DNA from: Bacteroidota bacterium
GTDB taxonomy: Bacteria; Bacteroidota; Bacteroidia; Palsa-948
Length of the DNA: 64,000 nucleotides
Assembly: GCA_016213435.1 (NCBI GenBank)
Contig: JACRAL010000093.1
Coordinates: 13,670 to 77,669, forward strand
Direction: 5' to 3'
In this document: in pieces, positions 2,999-64,000 of the stretch
How the letters are laid out: each line of letters starts with the position of its first letter
How positions within the stretch are numbered: the stretch's first letter is position 1
The notes under the pieces: model-generated
What the model was told of the DNA's origin: nothing
Database searches by the model: none
What the model saw: only the letters and a program-made list of their open reading frames with translations
Made by a program: the position numbers and the translations under genes

Positions 2999-4534
2999 TT
3001 AGGGATTTAGGGCAGCCGGTTTCGCCTTTTCCCTCACCACCTCCGCAAAAGTTTTATTTTGAATTTTGCTTTCCACCCAACTCAGAAAATCGAACTCCTC
3101 CATTGCAGCTTTCTCCATCGGATATTTTCTAAGTTTCAGCAAGTTTGTTTTTAATTCCTGAAGAGCAGCGCTGCGTTTTTTTTTGCTGATCGCCTTGCCC
3201 ATGATCTGACGCAGGCAATGCATAAATGCCTGTTCCATTTTAAAAAACCGATGACGTGTGGAAAGGAAATGCAGGGCGCTGCGTTTCAATGAATCTAACC
3301 ATTCTTCATCCTTATGCAACTCGTAGTGGATGAGCAGAGAGAGAATATGTGACAATGCTTGCGTATCCTTCCGTAGTTCGCTGGCGGGCTGATCAAGGAT
3401 TTTTCTGAGCCAAAGTAATGCTTCGTTATATCTGCCTGCTCCAAAGAGCATATAGGCGATATTATAATAGAGGTTTTTTTTTGTAATGGCAGTAGCTTCT
3501 TTCAGCAGGTCTTCATTTTCTTCTATCGCTTTTAATGTCGAGAATATTTTTTCAAAATCCCCCATACGCATGAGCACGTTTAATTCATTTATATAGGAAG
3601 ATATCCAGAAGGTGGCTTTGACCTCAGGGGAAGTAATGGGATAAGAGCGTATTTTCTGCAATACTTCCTGCATCTCTCCATACTTATTGCGGTGCGTGGG
3701 TACAATATCTTCTAAAAAGATACCTAATATATTTAACGCGAAAAGATATCTTTTTTCCGGATCTCTCAATTGATGTAAATGAGTTTCTATAAAACTACAT
3801 TGTTCTTTTGCTGTTTTGTATCCTTGAGTGAAATCACGTTTAAAGAAATAGTAAAGAGATCGTATTTCATAGTAATATGTTTTTGCTTCTGCGCAGGATG
3901 CCTGTTGGGGATTGCGCAAAAGAGGATGCCGCATCAGTTTTGCAGCAAGCACTTGTTCCTCTTTTGTACGCATGGATTCCCCTTCCTGAATCTGTTGTAT
4001 TATCTTATGGTGTATGGTTCGATAATCCTTAATGTTGCTTAGTTTTTGCTGTACGGCTCCCATTTCTTCGTTCAGATGAGGTATTTTTAACAGATCCATG
4101 GATGTACAGGGAATTCTTTCCATGGTCAATATTTCGATCAGCAATTCCCAGTGCTCATGATGATATGCACTAAGTTTGGCCTTCTTTAACAGAAGAAGCG
4201 CCTGCGCAGTAAGCCCTTTGCGTAAAAGAATTTCGGCTTTGTTGAGTTGGCTTCGCAGGTTTATATCCGTACTGCTGTGGTAGTTTTCCAAACTCCGGAG
4301 GATATTATTGTAAAGACGGCCATTGGCGACAGAAAGCCGCTTCAAAAACTTTTGTCCATGGCAGACGCTGCGTATAGCATCCTCATTATACCTGTCTTGT
4401 TTTTCTATCGCGTCATATAATTTCAGATAGCTTTTATCTCCGCCTTTTAAAGAGGAAAACATTTTGAAATACTTCTTTTCTGCCATAGCGAGCGAATGGA
4501 TCAACTCGAAAAGCGCAGTTCCTGTCTTTTTCAT
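2999..4534 (-). CDS. Hypothetical all-helical (TPR-like) cytoplasmic protein, paralog A of 59181..60737
   Basis: 511-aa ORF with no signal peptide. About 65-70 percent identical over the first 150 aa to the ORF at 59181..60737. No catalytic motif recognised. Confidence 0.6.
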   Translation of the reverse strand: MKKTGTALFELIHSLAMAEKKYFKMFSSLKGGDKSYLKLYDAIEKQDRYNEDAIRSVCHGQKFLKRLSVANGRLYNNILRSLENYHSSTDINLRSQLNKAEILLRKGLTAQALLLLKKAKLSAYHHEHWELLIEILTMERIPCTSMDLLKIPHLNEEMGAVQQKLSNIKDYRTIHHKIIQQIQEGESMRTKEEQVLAAKLMRHPLLRNPQQASCAEAKTYYYEIRSLYYFFKRDFTQGYKTAKEQCSFIETHLHQLRDPEKRYLFALNILGIFLEDIVPTHRNKYGEMQEVLQKIRSYPITSPEVKATFWISSYINELNVLMRMGDFEKIFSTLKAIEENEDLLKEATAITKKNLYYNIAYMLFGAGRYNEALLWLRKILDQPASELRKDTQALSHILSLLIHYELHKDEEWLDSLKRSALHFLSTRHRFFKMEQAFMHCLRQIMGKAISKKKRSAALQELKTNLLKLRKYPMEKAAMEEFDFLSWVESKIQNKTFAEVVREKAKPAALNP

Positions 4535-4615
4535 AACTGTGATAATTATGGATCGGAAAGGTATGCATAATTCTGCTTATTCGTAGCAGAAAAGAAGATC
4601 ATGGTGGATAAGATT

Positions 4616-4682
4616 CAAAATCATATTGGTGCAATAGTGCGAAACGTTATTTTGTATCCATCACTTCTTTGACCGAACTTTG
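4616..4682. promoter_or_regulatory. Conserved intergenic motif pair (AAAATCATATTGGT ... TTTGACCGAACTTT) shared with 60826..60890
   Basis: Two motifs with the same 38-39 bp spacing appear in both paralogous divergent intergenic regions. Confidence 0.3.
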
Positions 4683-4700
4683 GTATATAAAGAAAACAGC

Positions 4701-4760
4701 CACCCCTTCCCCTAAAGGGCGAGGACAAAAACAATAGCCCCCTTTAGGGCGGGGGGAAAA
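4701..4760. repeat. Two GC-rich palindromes (CCCCTTCCCCTAAAGGG... / CCCCCTTTAGGGCGGGGGG) inserted in the intergenic region
   Basis: About 60 bp present here and absent from the otherwise collinear paralogous intergenic region at 60890..60911. Confidence 0.5.
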
Positions 4761-4773
4761 CAACAACAACACT

Positions 4774-4944
4774 ATGATATCACTCGGAATTGAATACTCT
4801 CCTCCGCCCACCAAAAAGGAAATCCGCGAATGGAAAAAATGGAGAAAGGAGATGAACAGGATAGAGGAAATGTACATGCCGAAAGCTACTCCCCACAATA
4901 AGAAGAACATTAAAAAGAAAGACAATAAAAAACCAGGAAAATGA
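4774..4944 (+). CDS. Small basic protein (56 aa), paralog of 60912..61103
   Basis: Hand translation gives MISLGIEYSPPPTKKEIREWKKWRKEMNRIEEMYMPKATPHNKKNIKKKDNKKPGK. The N-terminal 30 aa match MISLGLELPSPPPSAKEIREWHKWRKEMN of the other copy. Its TGA stop overlaps the ATG at 4941 (ATGA). It is absent from the ORF track only because it is under 60 aa. Confidence 0.55.
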   Translation: MISLGIEYSPPPTKKEIREWKKWRKEMNRIEEMYMPKATPHNKKNIKKKDNKKPGK

Positions 4945-5378
4945 AAAAACTTTTAGCGCTTATCGCCACCATCATCTTATTTGCCATCGTTCTTTCTTCT
5001 TGCAAAAGTCATGAACTTTGTCCTGCTTATGGAAAAACGGATATGAAAATAATAACAGCGGGAAATACCCCATTTTCCACTGAAAACACATCAACTCAAT
5101 GTGTAAGCTCATTAACTCCGGGTGCAAGCGCATTAACTCCGGGTGCGAGACCTTCAACTCCGGGTGCAAGCGCATTAACTCCGAATGCGAGACCTTTAAC
5201 TCCGGGTGCAAGCGCATCAACTCCGAATGCGAGACCTTTAACTCCGGGTGCAAGCTCATCAACTCCGGGTGCAAGCGCATTAACTCCATGTGAAAACTCA
5301 TCAACTCCAGGTGCAAGCTCATCAACTCAATCTATAGTTAAAAGAAAGAATTCATCATTTACCATTCATAATTTATAA
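4941..5378 (+). CDS. Lipoprotein with tandem heptapeptide (LTPGASA/LTPNARP) repeats
   Basis: Signal peptide plus lipobox (VLSSC). The coding sequence contains ten or more 21-bp repeats. Confidence 0.6.
   Translation: MKKLLALIATIILFAIVLSSCKSHELCPAYGKTDMKIITAGNTPFSTENTSTQCVSSLTPGASALTPGARPSTPGASALTPNARPLTPGASASTPNARPLTPGASSSTPGASALTPCENSSTPGASSSTQSIVKRKNSSFTIHNL
5108..5330. repeat. 21-bp tandem repeat (TTAACTCCGGGTGCAAGCGCA-like), about 10 units, inside the lipoprotein CDS
   Basis: Direct reading of the sequence; the units stay in frame. Confidence 0.8.
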
Positions 5379-5390
5379 TTTACTGCACCA

Positions 5391-6647
5391 ATGACAACAA
5401 TCAAAAGAATTTACCATGTAGCTGACTCCACGATGCTGGATTCAGCCGATGTGTTTCATGCACTTTATGTAGTGGATGAAGCCGATTATTCGGGTTTCAG
5501 CAGCGCCATCTTTACGGCAAACTTTAAAACAGATTTTCTTGCCGAAATTAATGCTGCCCGAGCCGTAGTGCAAGATATGATCAACATAGATGAGATGGCA
5601 GAAGAAACCGCTTTGGTAACCGCAAAAACTAAAGAATGTGCCGACTATTTTATTTCCGCAAAATTTTTTATTGAAAAAGCATTCCCCGATAATCAGGCGG
5701 TGTGGAACCAGTTTGGATACAATGATTACCGAAAAGCAAGCCGATCGCAAAGCAAGATGATCGGCTTTATGGAAATGTTTTTTATAGTTGCAACAAAATA
5801 TACTGCCCAGCTGAACGCTCAGGGCTTCACCGCTGCAAAAATAGCGCAGATACAAACGCTGGAAACCCAGCTCCGCACCGAGCAATTAGATCAGGAAACA
5901 TTTAAAAAGAACCGCCCTCTGTGGACTCAGGACAGGATCATTATTTTAAACAAACCCTATCAAAGGATGGTAGATATTCACAATGCTTCCAAAACCATTT
6001 ATAAAAATAATTTCGCAAAGCTGCATCAATATGCCTTGCCGCACAGTGGAACAACTCCTCCGCCTGCACCAGCCGTTATAAGCATGGTTACCGACCAAAC
6101 TACTTTGCAGGCAATCATCCTCAAAATAGCCGGCAATGCTTTGGCAACAGACACCGAGCAATTCAAAATTGCTTTTGGCGATGGCAACGAAGGGATTGGC
6201 ACTTTAGCAAACGGAATCCTTGCCATCTATCCGCACGATTACAACATACCCGGTGCCGATGCATCGGGCATCTATACAATAACCATCACTCCCGTTACCG
6301 CAGGCGCTTTATCCCTCATGGGTGTTTTGCAGTTTGATAACTGCAAGTTTAAAGATGACGTTACTATCCCCGCTGCGGTGCAGGCATCGGGTATTCAGAT
6401 GCCAAATAATCATATAACAAATTTCAATATGCAGCCTGCTTCTTACAGCAAGCTCACTTCGCTTGTTCTTTTTAATAATGATATGACTGCGAGTAACGTA
6501 AACTTTAATCTGATCGGCTTAGATGACAGCGGCTTGCCTAATGGCTTTGCCAACTTTGGCGGTGGAACAAATGCGGCACCCACAGGAGCAGGAATTACAG
6601 CAAAGAATAATTTAATTGCAAAGGGATGGACGGTAATAACGAATTAA
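5391..6647 (+). CDS. Hypothetical protein
   Basis: 418-aa ORF with no signal peptide and no recognised motif. Confidence 0.45.
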   Translation: MTTIKRIYHVADSTMLDSADVFHALYVVDEADYSGFSSAIFTANFKTDFLAEINAARAVVQDMINIDEMAEETALVTAKTKECADYFISAKFFIEKAFPDNQAVWNQFGYNDYRKASRSQSKMIGFMEMFFIVATKYTAQLNAQGFTAAKIAQIQTLETQLRTEQLDQETFKKNRPLWTQDRIIILNKPYQRMVDIHNASKTIYKNNFAKLHQYALPHSGTTPPPAPAVISMVTDQTTLQAIILKIAGNALATDTEQFKIAFGDGNEGIGTLANGILAIYPHDYNIPGADASGIYTITITPVTAGALSLMGVLQFDNCKFKDDVTIPAAVQASGIQMPNNHITNFNMQPASYSKLTSLVLFNNDMTASNVNFNLIGLDDSGLPNGFANFGGGTNAAPTGAGITAKNNLIAKGWTVITN

Positions 6648-6869
6648 ATTGTCTAAACCATGATTAAAAGGATTAAAAGATTACCATGATATTTAAATCA
6701 AGAAATCCTATAATCAAGAAAATCAAGGTTCAGACAGGAGAGGGTCGGGATAGGCTTCTAAAACCAAACACAATGCAACCAACAATAAAAATTATTGCAG
6801 CAGCAGCATTATTGATATTCTTATTGAGTCTGTTTCTTTTAACACAAGCATTAAACTAAATTAATCACC

Positions 6870-9800
6870 ATGAAGAATAAGATCTTTACCCTTGCTCTAC
6901 GCTCAATCTCCTCCCCAATGGACAACCGTAGGTTGCGACCGAAGGTCAGTTGTGGTGGGACTTTACTTCTCCTCCTCTGCCAATTTTGCTTTTGGCAACA
7001 GGGGTATGCTGTAGTAACTACTTTAACATTGGCAAATCCAACAACTGCCGTAGGTGCTGCTGATATTTGTGCAGGCACACTAAAGGTTCCAATTCATGCT
7101 TTCAAAATAACTGCATCGGGTGGTGCAGGCAGTGGGGTGCTGACTAACTTTCAATTTACAACTACCGGAACTTATGTTGCCTCTGAAATCGTTAATTTTA
7201 AAATTTGGAAAAATACTGTAGATGATTTAAGCACGGCTACAGAACTATTAGCAGCGTATGCAGGAACTCCACCATCAACTAACAATACCCCTCTTGGTCC
7301 CGGCTTGCAAGTATACTCAGGAACGGGAGGACCGTCAACATCATTCCGGACATTTAGTTATGGAATTCCGAATACTGTAACTTGGTTTTTTTGGATAACA
7401 ATGGATGTTGCTGCCACCGTTACTGATGGTAGTACTATAGGCGTTATTGCTTCTGTTAATACAGACATGACTACTGCTAAAATCCAAGCCGGCAGTGCAG
7501 CTGCCAGCGGAACACAAACATTGCATACTTTTCCCGTCATCACGGTTCAACCTGCTGATCAGTCAATATGTACCAGCAGTCTTAGCGTTCCAGCTGCATT
7601 TAATGTTACCGCTACAGCAGGCAGCGGATTAACGTATCAATGGTATGAAAATGCGGTACTCATTACCAATGGAGGAATTTACAGCGGAGCCACTTCAGCA
7701 GCATTAACCCTTACCGGAGTAAATGCAGGCATGAACGGCTATCTGTATACCTGTGTAACATCCACCGCATTTTGCTCAACCACCTCCTCTGCGGCAAGTC
7801 TTAATGTTCCGGCACTTGCTCCTACCCGTGCTGTTACGCAAAATAATATTTCGGGTGTTTTGCAGGGAACAAACTACAATGAAATAATTGGCATCGAGAT
7901 CGATATAAACTGCGCCACCACAACTGCAACTTCTTTTATTTTAAATACAACCGGAAGCACTGCCCCGGGCACCGACATCAGCGCGGCAAGGCTTCTGTAC
8001 ACGGGCACTTCATCCATATTCACAACCTCAGCCCCTCAATTCGGCATACAGGCATCTCCCAGCGGAACATTCACCATTACGGGAACACAAAGCCTATCTG
8101 TTGGCACCAATTATTTTTGGCTGAGCTATGATGTTCCTCTCACCGCAGTGCTTGGCGATGTGCTGGACGGGCAATGCACTTCGATAACCATTGGAGGAAC
8201 CGGTACGGCACCAAGCCCTACTACCGTAGCAGGAAGCAGGCCCATAGTTGCCGTGAACAGCTGGCTTTGGGCACAGGGAGCGGTAGGTGATGGTACCGCT
8301 TTCGAAATACAAGATATATTGGACTGCGCCATTGATGCTTCAAACAGTGTATACACTGTGGGGTATTTTAAACTCAATGTTACTTTTGGTTCAACTCCCA
8401 CACTGTCAGCTCCTGTTGGCTATTCCCCGGTTATTGTAAAATACGATGCCGGGGGCAATGCTCTCTGGGCGAGAATGATAGGAAATGCTGCCGGTGGTTA
8501 TGTGGGGTCGTATGATGGTGTGGCTGTCTCGCCTGCGGGTTGGGTGTATGCAGTAGGAAATGTGAGTGCAGGCACCACCTTTGGTCCTTTTACAGCCACC
8601 ATGGGTGGTATGGTCGTTATGGTTTACGATGCTAATGGAAATGAGGCGTATATGTTTCCTCAAAACACAAATACCGGCACTTGCAGTGGCAGTAATTTGG
8701 CGGTGGATGCTTCTGATAATGTGTATGTAACAGGATATTATATTGGAGCCATCACCATAGGTGGATTATCTATTACTAGCAGTAATGGGGGTACACAAAC
8801 CGATGTCTTTGTTGTTAAATACGATGGAGTAACGGGCAATCCGGTCTGGCTGAAAAGCATAGGCGGAGGCGGAGGCGGAGCTCATGGTGTTTGGTTCAAT
8901 ACCTATGTGAACGATGCTATGAAAAGCATAGCTGTTGATGCTTCAGGTAATGTTTTTGTAGGGGGATATTCTGCTGCTAGCAGTCCTCTTGATGTTTGGT
9001 CGGGAGAACCCCGTATCACTGCGGGTGCGTTTACCACTACCTCGGTTCAACAACTTGATTTCTTTCTCGTTAAATACAATTCTTCCGGCACAGAACAATG
9101 GATGAAACAACCTACATCGGGTACCGGTGGCGGAAACGATATGAATAAGATGGCCGGTTTGGCTCTCGATGCTTCGGGCAATGTATATATAACAGGGTCC
9201 TTTGCATACAATCTCAGAATTGGAACAACCACCCTCACTAATACCGGTGCTGGCGGTAATCCGACATTTGTTTTGGATGTGTTTGTTGCCAAATATAATA
9301 ATGCAGGCACTTTTCAATGGGCAGTGAGTGGAGGAGGCTCTGGAGAGGAAAACGGTTACAACATCGCCATAAACCCGCTTAACAATCACCTGTTTGTGAT
9401 TGGGGATATAAATTTGAGCGGTGGCAATGCAACTTTCACCAGGATGGCAGCGGGTGGGAGTGGAGGAGGCGGAAATACTGTTTTCTCAACGATTACCCTA
9501 CCCGGTGGCATGGGAGATTTGTTTATTGTGGAATACACTGATGCCGGAGTTGCAGTTTGCGGGAGTTCATTAGTAGGTGGTGGAGAAGATGCAACGGGCG
9601 TTGCCGCAGATAACTTTGGCTTTGCGTATATAGCAGGAGATTTTGAGGGTGTCGATCCATTTATAGTTGGCTCAACCAGTTTACCATTTACTATGGGTGC
9701 TGGTCAGGAAAATGCCTATATCGCCCGATGGTCTTCTTGTGTTGCTGTTCCCCTCGGTGTGGAGTGGATGTCGTTCACGGCATCATGCAATGAGGGCAAA

Positions 9801-10310
9801 GCAAAACTGAACTGGAGCACCGCTTCGGAAACTAATAATGATTACTTTGCCATAGAGCGCAGTGCAGATGGAGTAAACTATGAGACAATAGGCACAGTAA
9901 AAGGTGCAGGCAACAGCAGCATGACAACAGATTATACATTCACGGATGCTGATCCTGTGGATGGAATTTCTTATTACCGCATCAGGCAAACGGATTATAA
10001 CGGAAACAGCACTGTTTCAAAAATTGTGAGTTACAATAAGAATGTCTGCGGTGTATCTGTTTATCCAAATCCATTTGATAAAACTTTGTATGTGAGCAGC
10101 CCAACTACTGTGAATGCATTATTCAGGATTGTAAATGTATTGGGGCAGGAGGTGTATTCTCAGCATATCTTCCTACCCGGAGATGGCACAAGCCTTGCCA
10201 TTGACTTACCTTTATTAGCCAGCGGAATGTATATAGTGCGGATCAGTGATACAGATAACTTAAATCTGTTGCTGAACACGAAAGTGGTGAGAGCGGGAGT
10301 GGCTGAGTAG
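6870..10310 (+). CDS. Large secreted protein with SBBP-type beta-propeller repeats and a type IX secretion C-terminal sorting domain
   Basis: 1146 aa. Repeated NVYVTGYY/NVFVGGYS/NVYITGSF motifs. The C-terminus (YPNPFDKTLYV...GMYIVRISD...KVV) matches the T9SS C-terminal domain. The true start may be at 6918. Confidence 0.7.
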   Translation: MKNKIFTLALRSISSPMDNRRLRPKVSCGGTLLLLLCQFCFWQQGYAVVTTLTLANPTTAVGAADICAGTLKVPIHAFKITASGGAGSGVLTNFQFTTTGTYVASEIVNFKIWKNTVDDLSTATELLAAYAGTPPSTNNTPLGPGLQVYSGTGGPSTSFRTFSYGIPNTVTWFFWITMDVAATVTDGSTIGVIASVNTDMTTAKIQAGSAAASGTQTLHTFPVITVQPADQSICTSSLSVPAAFNVTATAGSGLTYQWYENAVLITNGGIYSGATSAALTLTGVNAGMNGYLYTCVTSTAFCSTTSSAASLNVPALAPTRAVTQNNISGVLQGTNYNEIIGIEIDINCATTTATSFILNTTGSTAPGTDISAARLLYTGTSSIFTTSAPQFGIQASPSGTFTITGTQSLSVGTNYFWLSYDVPLTAVLGDVLDGQCTSITIGGTGTAPSPTTVAGSRPIVAVNSWLWAQGAVGDGTAFEIQDILDCAIDASNSVYTVGYFKLNVTFGSTPTLSAPVGYSPVIVKYDAGGNALWARMIGNAAGGYVGSYDGVAVSPAGWVYAVGNVSAGTTFGPFTATMGGMVVMVYDANGNEAYMFPQNTNTGTCSGSNLAVDASDNVYVTGYYIGAITIGGLSITSSNGGTQTDVFVVKYDGVTGNPVWLKSIGGGGGGAHGVWFNTYVNDAMKSIAVDASGNVFVGGYSAASSPLDVWSGEPRITAGAFTTTSVQQLDFFLVKYNSSGTEQWMKQPTSGTGGGNDMNKMAGLALDASGNVYITGSFAYNLRIGTTTLTNTGAGGNPTFVLDVFVAKYNNAGTFQWAVSGGGSGEENGYNIAINPLNNHLFVIGDINLSGGNATFTRMAAGGSGGGGNTVFSTITLPGGMGDLFIVEYTDAGVAVCGSSLVGGGEDATGVAADNFGFAYIAGDFEGVDPFIVGSTSLPFTMGAGQENAYIARWSSCVAVPLGVEWMSFTASCNEGKAKLNWSTASETNNDYFAIERSADGVNYETIGTVKGAGNSSMTTDYTFTDADPVDGISYYRIRQTDYNGNSTVSKIVSYNKNVCGVSVYPNPFDKTLYVSSPTTVNALFRIVNVLGQEVYSQHIFLPGDGTSLAIDLPLLASGMYIVRISDTDNLNLLLNTKVVRAGVAE

Positions 10311-55330: not shown

Positions 55331-56725
55331 GTGAAAGAAAAATTTGTCAACATCCTTGCATTGTTCATGATTTTTTATATGCAAGCGCCCGGCAACTCAA
55401 ACGGCAATTCATGCTTTGCTCAAACTTCGGATAAAAATATTACTTTTTACGGGCAACTCCGGCAAAGTGACAAGCGGCCGCTTCGTTCCTCCACTGTATT
55501 ATTACTGCAATACAATCCGGATACAAAATCGGTTTCAGTCGTTGACTCCGCTACTACTGATTTTGGCGGTGACTATCGGTTTAATAAGACGCAACCGTTT
55601 AACAAAACTCAGCAGTATTATATTCTTGCTTTACCAAATGAATCGTATGATTACGAATTTCCTACATACTATGGTACTTCACTTTTTCTTGAAAAAGCTA
55701 CCCCTCTTACTGTTCTGAATCCGGGAGAAGAAATAGAAATCAATTTCACTACAATTAAAAAGAAGTCTTCTTCAGGTCGGGGAGCTATTGGCGGGCACAT
55801 TACTACCAATGGCGCTCCTGTTCCGAGTTTACGCGTATTCCTTTTTAGTCAGAATAATAATCCTGCTGCATTTGAATCTACAGATTCCTCAGGTTATTTC
55901 AAGTTCAATAAGATTTCGTATGGCATTTATTTTTTATGGATTGATTTTCCGGGAGTGGATAATTCTGTTCCCGATAAAGTGACTATTCATTCGCTTAACC
56001 CCGTAAAAGACAGTTTGAATTTCCGTATAGAAGAAAGTAATCTGATTTGGACTGATAACGCATATACAAGCATTAAAGATGCACTCCTCATTAAAACGCA
56101 TGTGTACTATCTTCAATTAAATAGTTTGCAGTATAATGTCATGGAGCAGAGTTTGATTATCCGAACTGATGGTTCTGTTACTTTAAAGCCGGCAATTGGA
56201 GAATTAACAAATCTGGAAACTTTGGAAATTGCAATCAATCAAATCACCACTCTTCCTGCTGAAATCGGCAAGTTGACCAAGTTAACCTTACTGAATGCCT
56301 CTTTGAATAAACTCAGCACACTGCCTCCTACAATAGAAAATCTGAAAAATCTGGAAGTGCTCGATCTTGGGAAAAATAATTTTAAGAAATTTCCGGAAGT
56401 AATCTGCAAACTTTCTTCATTGGAAGTTTTATCCCTGCAGAATAATCCATTCGATTCATTGCCCGGTTCAATCAGCAATCTGAAGAATTTAAAAAGCCTT
56501 TCACTTGAAAATAATTTTGAACTACTGGAACTTCCTCCGCAGATTGGAAAACTACATGATCTTGAAACGTTAAAGCTTTCCAACTGCACGAAATTAAGAT
56601 CACTTCCAAAGGAATTAAATAATCTGAAAAATCTGAAAATGCTTGATATTACAGGAACAAAACTTAACGCAAAAGATTTCCAGAAAGCAGTTCCCGAATG
56701 CGAAGTGAGGGATGGGAAGAAATAG
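55331..56725 (+). CDS. Leucine-rich-repeat protein with an N-terminal beta-sandwich region
   Basis: 464 aa. The C-terminal half is made of LxxLxxLxLxxN repeats. Confidence 0.7.
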   Translation: MKEKFVNILALFMIFYMQAPGNSNGNSCFAQTSDKNITFYGQLRQSDKRPLRSSTVLLLQYNPDTKSVSVVDSATTDFGGDYRFNKTQPFNKTQQYYILALPNESYDYEFPTYYGTSLFLEKATPLTVLNPGEEIEINFTTIKKKSSSGRGAIGGHITTNGAPVPSLRVFLFSQNNNPAAFESTDSSGYFKFNKISYGIYFLWIDFPGVDNSVPDKVTIHSLNPVKDSLNFRIEESNLIWTDNAYTSIKDALLIKTHVYYLQLNSLQYNVMEQSLIIRTDGSVTLKPAIGELTNLETLEIAINQITTLPAEIGKLTKLTLLNASLNKLSTLPPTIENLKNLEVLDLGKNNFKKFPEVICKLSSLEVLSLQNNPFDSLPGSISNLKNLKSLSLENNFELLELPPQIGKLHDLETLKLSNCTKLRSLPKELNNLKNLKMLDITGTKLNAKDFQKAVPECEVRDGKK

Positions 56726-59180: not shown

Positions 59181-60737
59181 TTATACTTTTTTTAAAGCCC
59201 CTCGAGAGATTCTAAATAGTTGTTTTGACTTCTCCTTCACCACATCCTCAAAAGTTTTATGCTGAATTTTGCTTTCCACCCAGCTTAGAAAGTCAAACTC
59301 CTCCATCGCTACTTTCTCCAATGGGTCTTTCATCAGTTTCAATAAGGTGGTTTTTAATACATGGAAAGCAAGAATGCGTTCATGTTTGTCAATAGACACT
59401 TTCATAACCTGATGCAGGCAATTCATCAAAGCTTTTTCCAATTTAAAAAGTCGGTTTTGTTTGGAAAGGAGATATAGAGTGCTTCGTTGTAATGATTTCA
59501 GCAGTTGAGCATCCTTATGTATTTCGTAGTGGATGAGCAGGAAAAGAATACGTGCCGCTGCGTACACATCATGCCGGAATGCGCCTTCGGGCTGTTCAAC
59601 TATTTTTTGGGTCCAGAATAATGCTTTGTTATAGCTGCCTGCACCAAAAAGCATATAGGCGATATTATAATAAAGAATAATTGGACTAACAGCAGGATCT
59701 TTGTTCAGAAAATCATTATTTGCTTCTATCGCTTTTATAACCGGAAATACTTTTTCAAAATCCCCCGTCCGCATGAACGCGTTTAATTCATTTATATAGG
59801 AATTTGACCAGTACGAGATTTTGAGTGAGTGTGAGGCAATGGGATAGGCACGTATTTTATTCAGCAATATCTGCATTTCTTCATATAAATTATGATTGAC
59901 AGATAAAAGATATCCTATGAAAATCACTGACATGTTCAGTCCGAAGAGATATCTCTTTCCATAGTCTCTTAATTGATGCGAGTGTGTTTCTATAAATTTA
60001 CATTGCTCTTTTGAGAGTTCATATCCTCGAATAAAGTCCCGCTTAAAAAAATAATAAAGAGACCACACTTCATAATAAGTTGCTTTTGCCTCTGCGCAGG
60101 ATGCCTGCTTTAAATTGCGTAAAAGAGGATGCCGCATAAGCTTTGTAATAAACACTTGTTCCTTTTTTGTGCGCATGGGTTCCGCTTCATGGATTTTCCG
60201 TGTTATCTTATAGTGTAGCGTTCGGTAGTCATCAATGTTGTTTAGCTTTTTGAGTACAGTTTTTATTTCTTCATTCAGATGAGACATTTTTAACAGCTCC
60301 TGTGCCGAATAAGGAATTCTTTCCATAATTAAAATTTCCATCAATAGTTCCCAGTGTTCATGCTGATATGCAATGCTCTTGGCTGCCCTTAATAGCTTCA
60401 GTGCCTGGTCAGTAAGCCCTTTGTCTAAAAGAATCCCGGCTTTGCTGATCTGGCTGCGCAGGTTTATATCCGTGCTGTTGTGGTAATTTTCCAAGCTGCG
60501 GAGAATACTATTATGAAGGCGCCTTTTAGCAACAGAAAGATGCCGCAGGAACTTTTGCCCGCGGCAGGTGTTGCGGATAGCGCCCTCATCATACCTGTTT
60601 TGTTTTTCTATAACATCATATAATACCAGATAGTTCTTGTCTCCACCTTTCAGCGAAGACAACATTTTGAAATACTTCTTTTCTGCCATGCTGAGGGAAT
60701 GGATCAAGTCAAAAATTGAAGTGCTTGTTTTTTTCAT
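59181..60737 (-). CDS. Hypothetical all-helical protein, paralog B of 2999..4534
   Basis: 518 aa, collinear with paralog A. Confidence 0.6.
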   Translation of the reverse strand: MKKTSTSIFDLIHSLSMAEKKYFKMLSSLKGGDKNYLVLYDVIEKQNRYDEGAIRNTCRGQKFLRHLSVAKRRLHNSILRSLENYHNSTDINLRSQISKAGILLDKGLTDQALKLLRAAKSIAYQHEHWELLMEILIMERIPYSAQELLKMSHLNEEIKTVLKKLNNIDDYRTLHYKITRKIHEAEPMRTKKEQVFITKLMRHPLLRNLKQASCAEAKATYYEVWSLYYFFKRDFIRGYELSKEQCKFIETHSHQLRDYGKRYLFGLNMSVIFIGYLLSVNHNLYEEMQILLNKIRAYPIASHSLKISYWSNSYINELNAFMRTGDFEKVFPVIKAIEANNDFLNKDPAVSPIILYYNIAYMLFGAGSYNKALFWTQKIVEQPEGAFRHDVYAAARILFLLIHYEIHKDAQLLKSLQRSTLYLLSKQNRLFKLEKALMNCLHQVMKVSIDKHERILAFHVLKTTLLKLMKDPLEKVAMEEFDFLSWVESKIQHKTFEDVVKEKSKQLFRISRGALKKV

Positions 60738-60825
60738 AATAGTCAGTTATCATGAATATAAAGTGGAAAGGTAGATATAATTCATCTTATAAATTAAAGA
60801 AATAGTGTTTTTTCTGATAAAATTA

Positions 60826-60890
60826 AAAATCATATTGGTTAGATACAACAAAAAGTTATTGTTGCGGCATTGTTTTTTTGACTGACCTTT
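60826..60890. promoter_or_regulatory. Conserved intergenic motif pair (AAAAATCATATTGGT ... TTTGACTGACCTTT)
   Basis: See 4616..4682. Confidence 0.3.
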
Positions 60891-60911
60891 ACTTTATTAA
60901 ATCAAACCTAT

Positions 60912-61103
60912 ATGATATCACTCGGACTTGAGCTTCCCTCTCCTCCACCCTCAGCAAAAGAAATCCGCGAATGGCACAAATGGAGAAAGGAGATGAACCT
61001 GTTGATGGAAGAAACCGCCTCGCGCAAAAAAAAAGCCCACCCCAAAAGGGTAAAAAACACAAAACAAAAATCAATAAATAAAACCAATCATGAAAACATT
61101 TAA
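60912..61103 (+). CDS. Small basic protein (63 aa), paralog of 4774..4944
   Basis: MISLGLELPSPPPSAKEIREWHKWRKEMN... Its 3' end overlaps the start of 61090 by 14 nt. Confidence 0.55.
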   Translation: MISLGLELPSPPPSAKEIREWHKWRKEMNLLMEETASRKKKAHPKRVKNTKQKSINKTNHENI

Positions 61104-62541
61104 AACAATACTCATCGGATGTATTATTGCTTTTGCAAACACAACTGCAATTTATGCTAATAATCTGCAGATAGGTATCCCTACTGTTGCAACCGCAACA
61201 ACCTTAACTTTTACTATCCAGTGGGATAATAGCTGGAGAGTATCTTCCGGCACCAATAATTATGATGCTGTTTGGATCTTTGCAAAATACCAGAATTGCA
61301 GCGGCACTAACGACTGGAACCATGTTACATTGGCTGCCGGCTCCAGCGTTTCGGGCGGGGTTTTACAGGTAGTGAATACATCGGATGGACTCTATAAAGG
61401 CATTTTTGTTCAACGAAGTGCAGATGGAATAGGAAATATTTCCAGCTCTACTGTTACCCTTCAAATGAGTTTCGCTGATGCAAGTTATAACTATCAGGTT
61501 TTTGCTATGGAAATGGTATATGTACCCGTTGGAAGTTTTTATGTAGGAGACAATACTTCGAATAATAGATGTTATTTGAGTCCAGCCGGAACTCCATTTA
61601 ATGTTACATCGGATGGCGCATTGGCACTCGGAGCAAATTTTTATGCTAATTCTACAAATTATGCTATAGCTTTAGCTTATCCTCTTGGATATGATGCATT
61701 TTATTCCATGAAATATGAAATTTCACAAGAGCAGTATGCTAAATTTCTCAGCACATTGACGTATGCTCAACAAACAGCCCGTATGGATATTCCGCCTACT
61801 TCTGCTCCCGGCACTTATGCTTTGGGAACAGGAGTCAATAGAAATGGAATTTGCATTAAAACATCCGGGGTTTTTAATACAGTGCCTGCCATAATGGGGA
61901 ATGATCTAACACCGGGTACTATTGACAATACCAACGATGGACAGAATATTGCCTGCAACTGGTTATCCTGGGAGGATTTGCTTGCCTATCTCGATTGGTC
62001 TGCCTTACGGCCCATGACAGAGTTTGAATTTGAGAAAATATGCAGAGGTCCCAACACAGCAGTTGCGAATGAATATCCATGGGCAACAACTACAATTACG
62101 CAAGCACCTTCATCTGCACTTACTAACCCACAATTAAGCACAGAGGTATCTACTGCTACGGGAGATGGCTTAACAAATTATGGAAATGGAACAGCCGGTA
62201 ATTATGGTCCCGGTCCAAATAGGGTTGGACAAGCAGCCAGAGCGGCAACTACACAACAGGGAGCCGGTGCTGCCTGGTATGGGGCATTGGATATGGCAGG
62301 AAATGTATGGGAACATTGTATTCTAGTGAATGCCACTATTACCAATGCAGCAGGCGATGGAGCAATTAGTGCAGCAGGTGCTCAAAATCAGGGCTGGCCA
62401 ACTTATACTAGTGCGACCAGAAGAGGTAGTGCTTATAGTCAAAGTTTTACCTATTGTAAAACAAGTGATAGGACATTCTATAACACTCCTACTAATACTC
62501 GAAATAGTGATGGTGGAGGCAGGGGTGTTCGTATGCCATAA
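61090..62541 (+). CDS. FGE-sulfatase (SUMF1) domain protein, GldJ/GldK/PorK-like
   Basis: Signal peptide. Motifs FYSMKYEISQEQYAKF, LRPMTEFEFEKICRG and RRGSAYS correspond to the FGE consensus FxMDKYEVTNxQYxxF / RLPTEAEWEYAxRGG / RGGSW. Confidence 0.5.
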   Translation: MKTFKTILIGCIIAFANTTAIYANNLQIGIPTVATATTLTFTIQWDNSWRVSSGTNNYDAVWIFAKYQNCSGTNDWNHVTLAAGSSVSGGVLQVVNTSDGLYKGIFVQRSADGIGNISSSTVTLQMSFADASYNYQVFAMEMVYVPVGSFYVGDNTSNNRCYLSPAGTPFNVTSDGALALGANFYANSTNYAIALAYPLGYDAFYSMKYEISQEQYAKFLSTLTYAQQTARMDIPPTSAPGTYALGTGVNRNGICIKTSGVFNTVPAIMGNDLTPGTIDNTNDGQNIACNWLSWEDLLAYLDWSALRPMTEFEFEKICRGPNTAVANEYPWATTTITQAPSSALTNPQLSTEVSTATGDGLTNYGNGTAGNYGPGPNRVGQAARAATTQQGAGAAWYGALDMAGNVWEHCILVNATITNAAGDGAISAAGAQNQGWPTYTSATRRGSAYSQSFTYCKTSDRTFYNTPTNTRNSDGGGRGVRMP

Positions 62542-62591
62542 TGTTATAGATAGTATCATGTTGATAATACTATTTATCTACAAATAAAAGA

Positions 62592-64000
62592 ATGAGAAAA
62601 ATCTATTTCCACCTAATTTTTATTACCTCTTTAATGTGTTATACATTATCGGGGTTTGCTCAATATTTAGGCGGTAATTATGGTGGGTTCTCTAATAACA
62701 ATAATTTTCCGGTTACCCGTACCTATGCCACATGGAATCCTTTAGACCAAGGAGCAGGAATTACTTTATCCGGTGGGAATCTGACAACTGCTAATACTGC
62801 AGCCGGTATGGTCAGGGCAACAATAGGAGTATTAAGCGGCAAATGGTATTGGGAAATTACCAGAAACAATCCGGCCGGAGTTAGCGGGATTGCTAATGCC
62901 TCTGCAGCGTTAACTACTTACCCGGGTGCTAATGTTAATGGGTGGGAATATGATGCTACAGGGTTGAAATATACGAATGCTGCCGGTGTTGCTTATGGAG
63001 CAACTTATACCACAGGCGATGTTATAGGCGTTGCTCTTGATATGGATGCGGGAACCATTACCTATTATAAAAATGGCGTTTCTCAGGGTATTGCCTATTC
63101 CGGATTAACAGGAATCATATACCCTGCATCGGGTGCAGGGGCTGGCGGTGCTTCTCCAAACGACCGTAAAATAACAGCCAACTTTGGAGCAACTGCTTTT
63201 GCTTATGCTGTTCCGGGCGGTTATAATTCCGGGTTATATACTGATTCTTATTTCAGTCCTTGCTCCGCTCCTGCAGGAATCAACTTTTATCTGGGGGGCA
63301 GCGGGGGAGGATTTTTGAGTGGAGAAAGGACACAAACAGTATGTACGCCTCCTGTGGGGATTAGTATTTGGAATGGCGGTATTGGTGATGGGTTTGCTAC
63401 CGCCAATAATTTTCCGGCAACTCCTGTGTATACCACATGGAACCCTTCAGACAAAGGAGCAGGAATTACATTAAGTGGTGGAGACTTAGGTGCTTTAAAT
63501 ACAGCAGCAGGTTTGGTTCGTTCTACAGTAGGTGTATCCAGCGGTAAGTGGTATTGGGAGGTAACAAAAACAGATGCTCCCGCAGGTGGTTCCATTGGTT
63601 TCGCAAAGTCAACTGCAGGAATAAATAATTATCCGGGTGCTGATGCAAATGGTTGGATGTATTCTGGAAGTAACGGCTACAAATATACCGGAGGTGTCGG
63701 AGTGGCGTATGGTGCTGCATACGTCCAAAATGATGTAATCGGGATTGCACTTGATATGGATGCAGGCTCAGTTACTTTCTATGTAAATGGTGTATCTCAA
63801 GGAGTTGCTTATAGTGGTTTAACAGGAACCATTTTTGCCTCTGTTGGTGCCGGTGCTGCCGGTAAATCTTGGACAACCAATTTTGGTGCTACAGCATTTG
63901 CTTATGCTGTTCCTTCCGGATTTAATTCGGGTTTATATTCAACCGATTATTTAAGCACATGTACTCCTCCTCCTGGTTTGAGTATATTCTTAGGCGGTCA
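62592..64000 (+). CDS. Secreted protein with at least two tandem ~215-aa SPRY/B30.2-like domains (partial, runs off the window)
   Basis: Signal peptide. Each repeat contains SGKWYWE(I/V)T and GV/IALDMDAG(T/S)(I/V)T(Y/F)Y(K/V)NGVSQG, which match the SPRY signature. The ORF is still open at the window end. Confidence 0.5.
   Translation, partial: MRKIYFHLIFITSLMCYTLSGFAQYLGGNYGGFSNNNNFPVTRTYATWNPLDQGAGITLSGGNLTTANTAAGMVRATIGVLSGKWYWEITRNNPAGVSGIANASAALTTYPGANVNGWEYDATGLKYTNAAGVAYGATYTTGDVIGVALDMDAGTITYYKNGVSQGIAYSGLTGIIYPASGAGAGGASPNDRKITANFGATAFAYAVPGGYNSGLYTDSYFSPCSAPAGINFYLGGSGGGFLSGERTQTVCTPPVGISIWNGGIGDGFATANNFPATPVYTTWNPSDKGAGITLSGGDLGALNTAAGLVRSTVGVSSGKWYWEVTKTDAPAGGSIGFAKSTAGINNYPGADANGWMYSGSNGYKYTGGVGVAYGAAYVQNDVIGIALDMDAGSVTFYVNGVSQGVAYSGLTGTIFASVGAGAAGKSWTTNFGATAFAYAVPSGFNSGLYSTDYLSTCTPPPGLSIFLGG

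Follow-up and report, generated by a model that had tools for sequence, protein, structure and literature searches.

What ties a gene for a formylglycine-generating enzyme (FGE)-like protein to the gene that follows it? The question is raised by the 3′ end of a 64,000-nucleotide stretch (the window) of contig JACRAL010000093.1 from a Bacteroidota bacterium, where two open reading frames (ORFs) lie on the same strand: ORF1, which encodes a secreted FGE-like protein, and, starting 50 nt past its end, ORF2, which encodes a type IX secretion system (T9SS) cargo with two SPRY domains. A first-pass annotation made from the letters alone had called a 483-aa FGE-domain ORF, which our gene calls reproduced to the base, and a following ORF open to the window end, whose frame indeed runs unbroken to base 63998. 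It had also placed both genes downstream of copy B of a regulatory module; consistently, ORF1 is flanked by ORF2 and by a RusR-like gene, the second copy of a 511/518-aa gene, from which it diverges (Table 1). ORF1 and ORF2 are a two-gene module widespread in Bacteroidota, and a GGxxDG repeat at the N terminus of ORF2 is the feature that ties the former to the latter.

Across Bacteroidota, the gene behind an FGE-like gene of this family nearly always encodes a secreted protein, which is usually T9SS cargo. The repeat is ~27 aa long (consensus NIYFGGNADGYSNGTLIQSICPPPENL), follows immediately on the signal peptide of this partner protein in 1 to about 70 copies, and is covered by no Pfam or NCBIfam model. 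At loci L002 and L003, the downstream neighbors of the FGE-like genes begin with a signal peptide followed by 8 to 19 tandem ~27-aa repeats of the form NIFFGGxADGYSxxxLxQSxCxxPEN. The predicted mature N terminus of ORF2, Q-YLGGNYGGFS, is the same motif, of which the protein holds five copies. Conservation across 332 instances is strongest around the glycines, with an aromatic residue two positions before GG and a D/N-G pair at +4/+5 (88%), followed by Leu/Ile at position 16, Cys at position 21 (70%), and Pro at position 24 (51%). A hidden Markov model (HMM) of the repeat, iterated over 3373 ORFs of at least 60 aa read from both strands of the window and of 82 loci from other genomes, matched 55 ORFs from 54 sources. 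All of them lie beside an FGE-like gene and on its strand, 54 downstream and one upstream. The pattern Q-x(0-3)-[YFHW]-x-GG within the first 75 aa is likewise found in 55 of the 74 ORFs located just after an FGE-like gene versus 8 of 1296 others (Fisher p = 8.5e-73); four of these eight are FGE neighbors too, and most downstream ORFs that lack the strict pattern show variants of it (IFHGGISDGF, GGNGRGD, GGxGRGD, or GGIGFG). The association also holds in the reciprocal direction. A word-indexed protein search with the repeat region returned no more than 15 matches, probably owing to the low complexity of the repeats, and was used only for this reciprocal test, in which all three independently found repeat proteins directly follow an FGE-sulfatase gene while their other neighbors are unrelated.

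The rest of the partner protein is variable. Partners are between 130 aa and more than 2600 aa long and carry PKD, Ig_7, BNR, or SPRY passengers, or none, with the N-terminal repeat as the constant element. A T9SS type A C-terminal domain (CTD) ends 30 of the 44 complete partners, and the smallest (130 to 154 aa) are just a signal peptide, one GGxGDG[FYH]A motif, and the CTD. The window provides an internal control, as the locus of regulator copy A (2999-10310) has a motif-less T9SS cargo and no FGE-like gene. Two apparent fusions of an FGE-like protein to its partner (P0394 and P0319) were not used as evidence: P0319 reads through the partner signal peptide, and P0394, with a signal-peptide-like stretch at the junction, has the same appearance of read-through or frameshift. 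Nothing specific to the ORF1 family or the GGxxDG repeat was found in the literature, and databases offer generic names only; the single domains are known, whereas the conserved pairing between Cys-less FGE-fold proteins and an unannotated repeat at the N terminus of T9SS cargo seems not to have been described.

ORF2 is cut by the window end and was completed from L001, a 5968-nt public contig found by exact-sequence look-up of ORF1, which is identical to positions 59772-64000 of the window (0 mismatches in 4229 nt) and extends 1739 nt further. The full protein has 1031 aa. It had been described as secreted, with a contig extension proposed as the way to look for a T9SS C-terminal domain; both the signal peptide, the probable cleavage site of which agrees with the Bacteroidetes Q-rule (PMC5837995), and the sorting domain (Por_Secre_tail/TIGR04183) are present. 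Over its last ~250 aa, ORF2 is 57% identical to the C terminus of a further CTD protein encoded in the window (6870..10310), and this second CTD protein suggests that the same genome has a T9SS.

Table 1. Features of the ORF1-ORF2 locus and of the RusR-like genes (nucleotide positions refer to the window; residue positions are given for features on contig L001)
Feature	Position	Strand	Details
TPR-like protein (copy A)	2999..4534	-	511 aa, distant full-length BT2802/RusR relative; paralogous to the 518-aa protein
TPR-like protein	59181..60737	-	518 aa, distant full-length BT2802/RusR relative; divergent from ORF1
ORF1, secreted FGE-like protein	61090..62541	+	483 aa, ATG start
ORF1 signal peptide	61090..61158	+	aa 1-23; probable cleavage before invariant Asn24-Asn25
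ORF1 N-terminal beta-sandwich	61159..61527	+	aa 24-146; family-specific; invariant WDNSW, NWDAVWVF, KYQxC(70)
ORF1 FGE-fold (C-type-lectin-like) domain	61528..62538	+	aa ~147-483; without the FGE catalytic cysteine pair
ORF2, T9SS type A cargo with two SPRY domains	62592..64000	+	first 469 of 1031 aa
ORF2 signal peptide	62592..62660	+	aa 1-23; probable cleavage Ala23|Gln24, fits Q-rule
ORF2 repeat copy 1, first half only	62664..62702	+	YLGGNYGGFSNNN; repeat HMM aa 25-37, weak E 0.018, plus regular expression
ORF2 SPRY domain 1	62718..63245	+	aa ~43-218; Pfam SPRY; phmmer matches to RanBP10/RanBP9 structures
ORF2 repeat copy 2, complete	63282..63353	+	INFYLGGSGGGFLSGERTQTVCTPP; repeat HMM E 1.7e-9, aa 231-254
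ORF2 repeat copy 3, first half	63366..63401	+	ISIWNGGIGDGF; repeat HMM E 4e-4, aa 259-270
ORF2 SPRY domain 2	63423..63947	+	aa ~278-452; best Pfam SPRY stretch aa 319-433
ORF2 repeat copy 4, start	63984..64000	+	IFLGGQSDGFSSGERTQTVCTPP; cut by window end; repeat HMM E 1.5e-11, aa 465-487
ORF2 repeat copy 5	aa 491-505, on L001		repeat HMM E 3.7e-5
ORF2 Cys-rich stretch	after aa ~505, on L001		
ORF2 DUF6923	aa 645-837, on L001		
ORF2 Fn3-like domain	ahead of CTD, on L001		
ORF2 T9SS type A sorting domain	aa 947-1017, on L001		Por_Secre_tail PF18962 E 1e-9; TIGR04183 E 1.4e-9

The other half of the module, ORF1, belongs to a large and taxonomically confined family. Full-length homologs (~500 aa) number about 2000 or more at 43 to 55% identity; a profile search of 1.84 billion representatives collected 2000 clusters (50% identity) at E <= 1e-30, and a scan of species-representative genomes placed the family in at least 565 Bacteroidota species. 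Wherever the source name of a homolog gives a taxon, it is Bacteroidota, and cultured carriers include Flavobacterium, Aequorivita, Epilithonimonas, Brumimicrobium, Pedobacter, and Phnomibacter. In a family alignment of 120 sequences, ORF1 is 45 to 55% identical over its full length to the other 119 and has every invariant column. Its hydrophobic N terminus forms a helix in the structure model and ends in an A-N-N stretch conserved in all 120 sequences, with no conserved Cys at this point; ORF1 has LIGC at residues 8-11, but a signal-peptide Cys is not a family trait. ORF1 is a Sec-exported, non-lipoprotein product. The FGE-sulfatase domain with its three hallmark motifs, as announced by the first-pass annotation, was borne out by a Pfam match of residues 201-464 (PF03781, E 7.8e-12) and by the motifs themselves (LRPMTEFEFEKICRG, GNVWEHC, and RRGS...GGRGVR). 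Fold comparison of ORF1 gave values for PvdO (18.3), EgtB (17.8), CalU17 (17.8), and ToxD (17.6), followed by PorK (17.2, 24% identity), the diversity-generating retroelement (DGR) variable protein TvpA (17.1), and SUMF2 (16.9). FGE-like genes often occur in tandem, with two or three copies ahead of one partner. Members of a sister clade (P0282, P0361, P0317, P0330, P0301, P0314, and P0315) have C-terminal fusions to other putative binding domains, namely, Lcl_C/DUF1566-like, a LamG-like region recognized by eye, Gly_rich_2, and PKD/Fn3. Scans for sigma-70 and Bacteroidetes -7 (TAnnTTTG) promoters around ORF1 yielded nothing above chance.

ORF1 differs from a true FGE in its active site. Catalytic FGEs have two copper-binding cysteines near the C terminus (Cys336 and Cys341 in human FGE). 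In an alignment with the T. curvata enzyme, the first of these corresponds to Gln in ORF1 and the second to Cys456, which is not conserved across the 120 family members. The same alignment holds no invariant His, and its sole invariant Cys is Cys70, in the N-terminal sandwich. A true FGE was therefore rejected, neither catalytic cysteine being conserved. ORF1 shares with FGE (SUMF1) and SUMF2 the fold, the PF03781 match, and the motifs LRPMTEFEFEK.CRG, GNVWE, and RGG...GGRGVR, and genuine FGEs are the only PDB sequences reached by the family profile (E about 1e-5, over a 33-residue stretch). It differs from FGE by the missing Cys-x4-Cys copper site, by the extra N-terminal domain, and by the lack of an adjoining sulfatase gene, and it resembles SUMF2, the inactive SUMF1 paralogue, in being without the catalytic site. 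Because the copper-binding cysteine pair of real FGEs is lost, the FGE-fold domain of ORF1 most likely serves binding rather than catalysis, as judged from the sequence. The same reasoning on catalytic cysteines has led to PorK being called nonenzymatic (PMC12421860). ORF1 is 100% identical to an NCBI protein from a metagenome-assembled genome named "SUMF1/EgtB/PvdO family nonheme iron enzyme"; for this family the name is generic and probably misleading.

The folds, the arrangement of domains, the T9SS signal, and the link between gene and motif are observed; from them we infer an interaction, its direction, and its compartment: with confidence that is evenly balanced, we propose that ORF1 is a dedicated, noncatalytic binding partner of the GGxxDG repeat. 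The FGE-like protein would specifically recognize the repeat on the neighboring cargo and could act as its dedicated chaperone, adaptor, or co-assembled subunit, for example, and the SPRY domains would most simply be the ligand-binding heads of a surface adhesin. We favor a noncatalytic partner because the catalytic residues are gone and no alternative invariant His/Cys site has taken their place; because the FGE-like genes duplicate in tandem, which is more usual for binding subunits than for enzymes; and because the nearest Cys-less precedents of the FGE fold (PorK/GldK/GldJ, PvdO, and the DGR variable proteins) have binding or structural roles. PvdO and the variable proteins TvpA, TaqVP, and Mtd illustrate noncatalytic and ligand-binding uses of the FGE/C-type-lectin fold, but no DGR or pyoverdine genes lie near ORF1 and the identity is only ~20%. 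Several points weigh against our proposal. A short motif that recurs next to the gene of an enzyme-like protein is equally the classic mark of a maturase with its substrate. Lacking a T9SS signal, ORF1 may encounter the cargo only transiently, in the periplasm. The repeat copies of ORF2 are degenerate, two of them being half-copies with weak HMM scores (E about 0.02), and the strict motif is missing from about a quarter of the downstream ORFs, variants notwithstanding. Whatever its nature, the pairing gives the Cys-less FGE-fold family a concrete partner and a simple rule, at the level of sequence, by which both halves can be found; should binding underlie it, it is a new way to build Bacteroidota surface structures, and should catalysis underlie it, it is a new protein modification.

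Catalysis, the main rival to our proposal, would mean that ORF1 is an active tailoring enzyme. While still in the periplasm and not yet exported by the T9SS, the GGxx(D/N)G...C repeat of the neighbor would then be modified covalently, with oxidation, cross-linking, or a change at Asp/Asn-Gly or Cys as examples, in the way that FGE acts on the CxPxR of sulfatases or a maturase acts on the precursor of a ribosomally synthesized and posttranslationally modified peptide. The fold is common to the enzymes FGE, EgtB, OvoA, and SenA, the pairing of an enzyme-like gene with a substrate-like gene carrying a short repeated motif is strict, minimal partners are peptide-sized once the CTD is set aside, and 70% of the repeat copies have a Cys with Pro at +3, loosely reminiscent of the sulfatase CxPxR. 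We nonetheless consider this reading unlikely. The FGE cysteines are missing or not conserved, no His is invariant, and no metal site of a known kind is kept; the iron site of EgtB/OvoA sits in a DinB domain, which ORF1 does not have. The repeat Cys is, moreover, absent in many single-motif partners (L041, L048, and L053), and its modification cannot therefore be the conserved function. Conversion of Cys to formylglycine at the repeat CxxP, in particular, was rejected as the conserved function on two grounds, namely, the missing catalytic Cys pair and these many Cys-less single-motif partners.

Returning to a noncatalytic binding partner, its roles could also be distributed the other way around, with the FGE-like protein as a ligand-binding surface component and the T9SS-exported repeat partner as its anchor or stalk. 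In this sharper version of our proposal, the CTD-less FGE-like protein would ride its partner to the surface in a cohesin-dockerin-like manner. Minimal partners made only of motif, linker, and CTD would suit such a role, and arrays of up to about 70 repeats could bear many FGE-like units. A surface binding protein would also fit the four loci that combine the module with a cobalamin riboswitch and a BtuB-like receptor, as well as the fusion of sister-clade FGE-like proteins to lectin-like Lcl_C, LamG-like, and Gly_rich_2 domains. However, the large SPRY/DUF6923 passenger of ORF2 suggests a functional cargo rather than a stalk, and piggy-back export did not turn up in a few T9SS papers, no search having been aimed at it; we regard the anchor function as distinctly improbable. 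The parallel with cohesin-dockerin is one of analogy only: both involve a short repeated Gly/Asp-rich segment, a globular partner encoded alongside, and a variable repeat number, but there is no sequence or fold relationship, and the likeness lies solely in how the module might work. In its most general form, the idea would make Cys-less FGE-fold proteins and GGxx(D/N)G repeats the two halves of a previously unrecognized Bacteroidota docking system, in which a T9SS-exported protein, in some cases reduced to motif plus sorting domain, would carry one or many FGE-fold binding subunits surfaceward and which would be reused for adhesins such as ORF2 and, in some lineages, at uptake loci under cobalamin-riboswitch control, a tentative view that we would not expect to hold as stated.

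The remaining alternative stems from the likeness to GldJ, GldK, and PorK noted in the first-pass annotation. These FGE-fold proteins have recently emerged as structural components at the center of Bacteroidota secretion and gliding, and they share with the ORF1 family its restriction to Bacteroidota, the T9SS link, and the structural use of an FGE fold devoid of the catalytic cysteines (PMC12421860). The likeness stands at the level of the fold and does not extend to family membership. ORF1 matched no NCBIfam model, those for GldJ and GldK included, at E <= 0.1, and a profile of 120 homologs did not reach PorK (PDB 9mzu) among PDB sequences at E <= 0.01. The family has no conserved lipobox Cys, its signal peptides ending in A|NN, and it often occurs in two or three tandem copies. 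Where PorK has insertion domains, ORF1 has its own N-terminal beta-sandwich instead. The family adjoins the motif-bearing cargo gene, and no gldL/M/N-like neighbors were seen in the window or the 82 loci, most of which were inspected only as ORF lists or by family clustering. Most family members do have a G-P-L-R-C-G-F motif that looks similar to the R-G-C-F tether loop of PorK and GldK. The tethering cysteine of that loop is Cys356 in PorK and Cys343 in GldK. Through this conserved residue GldK and PorK tether partner proteins (PMC12635249). In the ORF1 family the Cys of the similar-looking motif is not invariant, being replaced by Val, Thr, Gly, or Ala in several members, and the window protein reads GPNRVGQ at this site, with Val for Cys. 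That ORF1 is a GldJ/GldK/PorK paralogue, i.e., a structural component of the T9SS or of the gliding track that is anchored in the outer membrane and serves the ORF2 cargo, is highly unlikely; the shared Bacteroidota specificity, the adjoining T9SS cargo, and the similar-looking motif speak for it. An FGE-like protein beside a T9SS cargo need not be a Gld/Por component.

The passenger of ORF2 deserves a separate account. The protein matches Pfam SPRY (PF00622, E 3.2e-37) in two stretches, and the signatures on which the first-pass annotation had relied each occur twice: GKWYWE starts from nt 62838 and again from 63543, ALDMDAG from nt 63033 and again from 63747. The claim of tandem units stands, as across 213 aa the two units share 60% identity (E 3e-84) and the second begins at about nt 63294, next to the boundary given as 63296; the proposed unit size of ~215 aa does not, as the period is 235 aa (705 nt). 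The eukaryote-type assignment likewise finds support in significant phmmer matches of a SPRY unit to solved structures, i.e., RanBP10 (1.7e-13) and RanBP9 (7e-12), with Ash2L, DDX1, and SPSB too; the PRY model gave no reported match to ORF2 at E <= 1. The rarity of SPRY in bacteria was, by contrast, overstated: at least 2419 prokaryotic or phage clusters (90% identity) matched, bacterial surface proteins among them, and SPRY is not exotic in prokaryotes. In these clusters the domain is often combined with Laminin_G_3, DUF7483, bacterial Ig, pilin, YadA, or phage-tail domains. Cultured phages have SPRY in virion and fiber proteins at 34 to 46% identity, and single SPRY units of phage virion/tail-fiber and bacterial surface proteins are 45 to 58% identical to the ORF2 units. 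The closest relative is a 722-aa protein (L086:1645-3813) with four SPRY domains, 46% identity, and no signal peptide. Its contig is phage-like, with Gp77, DUF4376, and Laminin_G_3 proteins adjoining the four-SPRY gene. These relationships suggest that SPRY modules are exchanged between phage receptor-binding proteins and bacterial surface proteins, and the ORF2 domains look like a reused phage-type receptor-binding module. They differ from eukaryotic and phage SPRY in being embedded between GGxxDG repeat copies of a T9SS cargo. The sequence following each SPRY domain, Y[FL]S[PT]C[ST][AP]P[AP]G[IL][NS][FI], resembles the second half of a repeat, the first half of which stands ahead of that SPRY domain, and for this reason the SPRY domains appear to be inserted into repeats 1 and 3, with the weak HMM scores of the half-copies to be kept in mind. 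The Cys pairs 224/251 and 457/484 of ORF2 are each spaced by 27 residues.

Besides the partner, two-component regulators were the only neighbor family to recur in the 82 loci. In 23 of them, one or two sensor-kinase-like genes of ~590 to 650 aa and a response regulator gene of ~215 aa are found immediately upstream of the FGE-like gene, on its strand (e.g., L039:5354-9922, L043:5579-9895, and L025:5486-9825); these loci are mainly Flavobacterium-type, and their partner is a ~1038-aa PKD/Ig_7 cargo. In four distant loci, a cobalamin riboswitch (RF00174, 103 to 117 bits) heads an operon that encodes, in this order, a T9SS-CTD protein, the FGE-like protein, the tiny protein made of signal peptide, GGxGDG[FYH]A, and CTD (130 to 154 aa), a BtuB-like TonB-dependent receptor, and a DUF5074 beta-propeller (L041:8334-15042, L048:6678-14975, L053:7392-14917, and L064:8327-14852). 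This arrangement suggests that one branch of the FGE-like/repeat module is tied to corrinoid uptake; no riboswitch was found in the window.

The window regulators are of a different kind. RusR is a candidate positive regulator (10.1101/574913), and the 518-aa relative aligns with positions 1-499 of the 502 in NCBIfam NF058569 at 145 bits, the cut-off being 550. Identity between the two RusR-like copies is 64% for the protein and, over 1641 nt, 74% for the DNA. A RusR-like regulator was rejected as part of the module, since it is absent from all 82 other FGE-like loci examined. Each copy diverges from a gene set ending in a T9SS cargo, and the C-terminal ~250 aa of the cargos are near-identical. 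A small conserved ORF without a Pfam match precedes both copies on the divergent strand, just upstream of the first downstream gene (60912-61103 (+), MISLGLELPSPPPSAKEIREWHKWRKEMN...; ~4774-4940 (+), MISLGIEYSPPPTKKEIREWKKWRKEMN...), and copy A has an insertion of ~71 nt that contains an inverted repeat. Downstream of copy A, 4941-5378 (+) encodes a putative lipoprotein of 145 aa (…LSSC…) that contains tandem low-complexity repeats resembling "TPGASALTPGARPSTPNARPL" and has no Pfam match. Finally, 55331-56725 (+) encodes a 464-aa secreted protein with a C-terminal block of leucine-rich repeats, which, at scores far below the family cut-offs, resemble the Xanthomonas XopAE/XopAC/XopL type (E 1e-30 to 8e-25).

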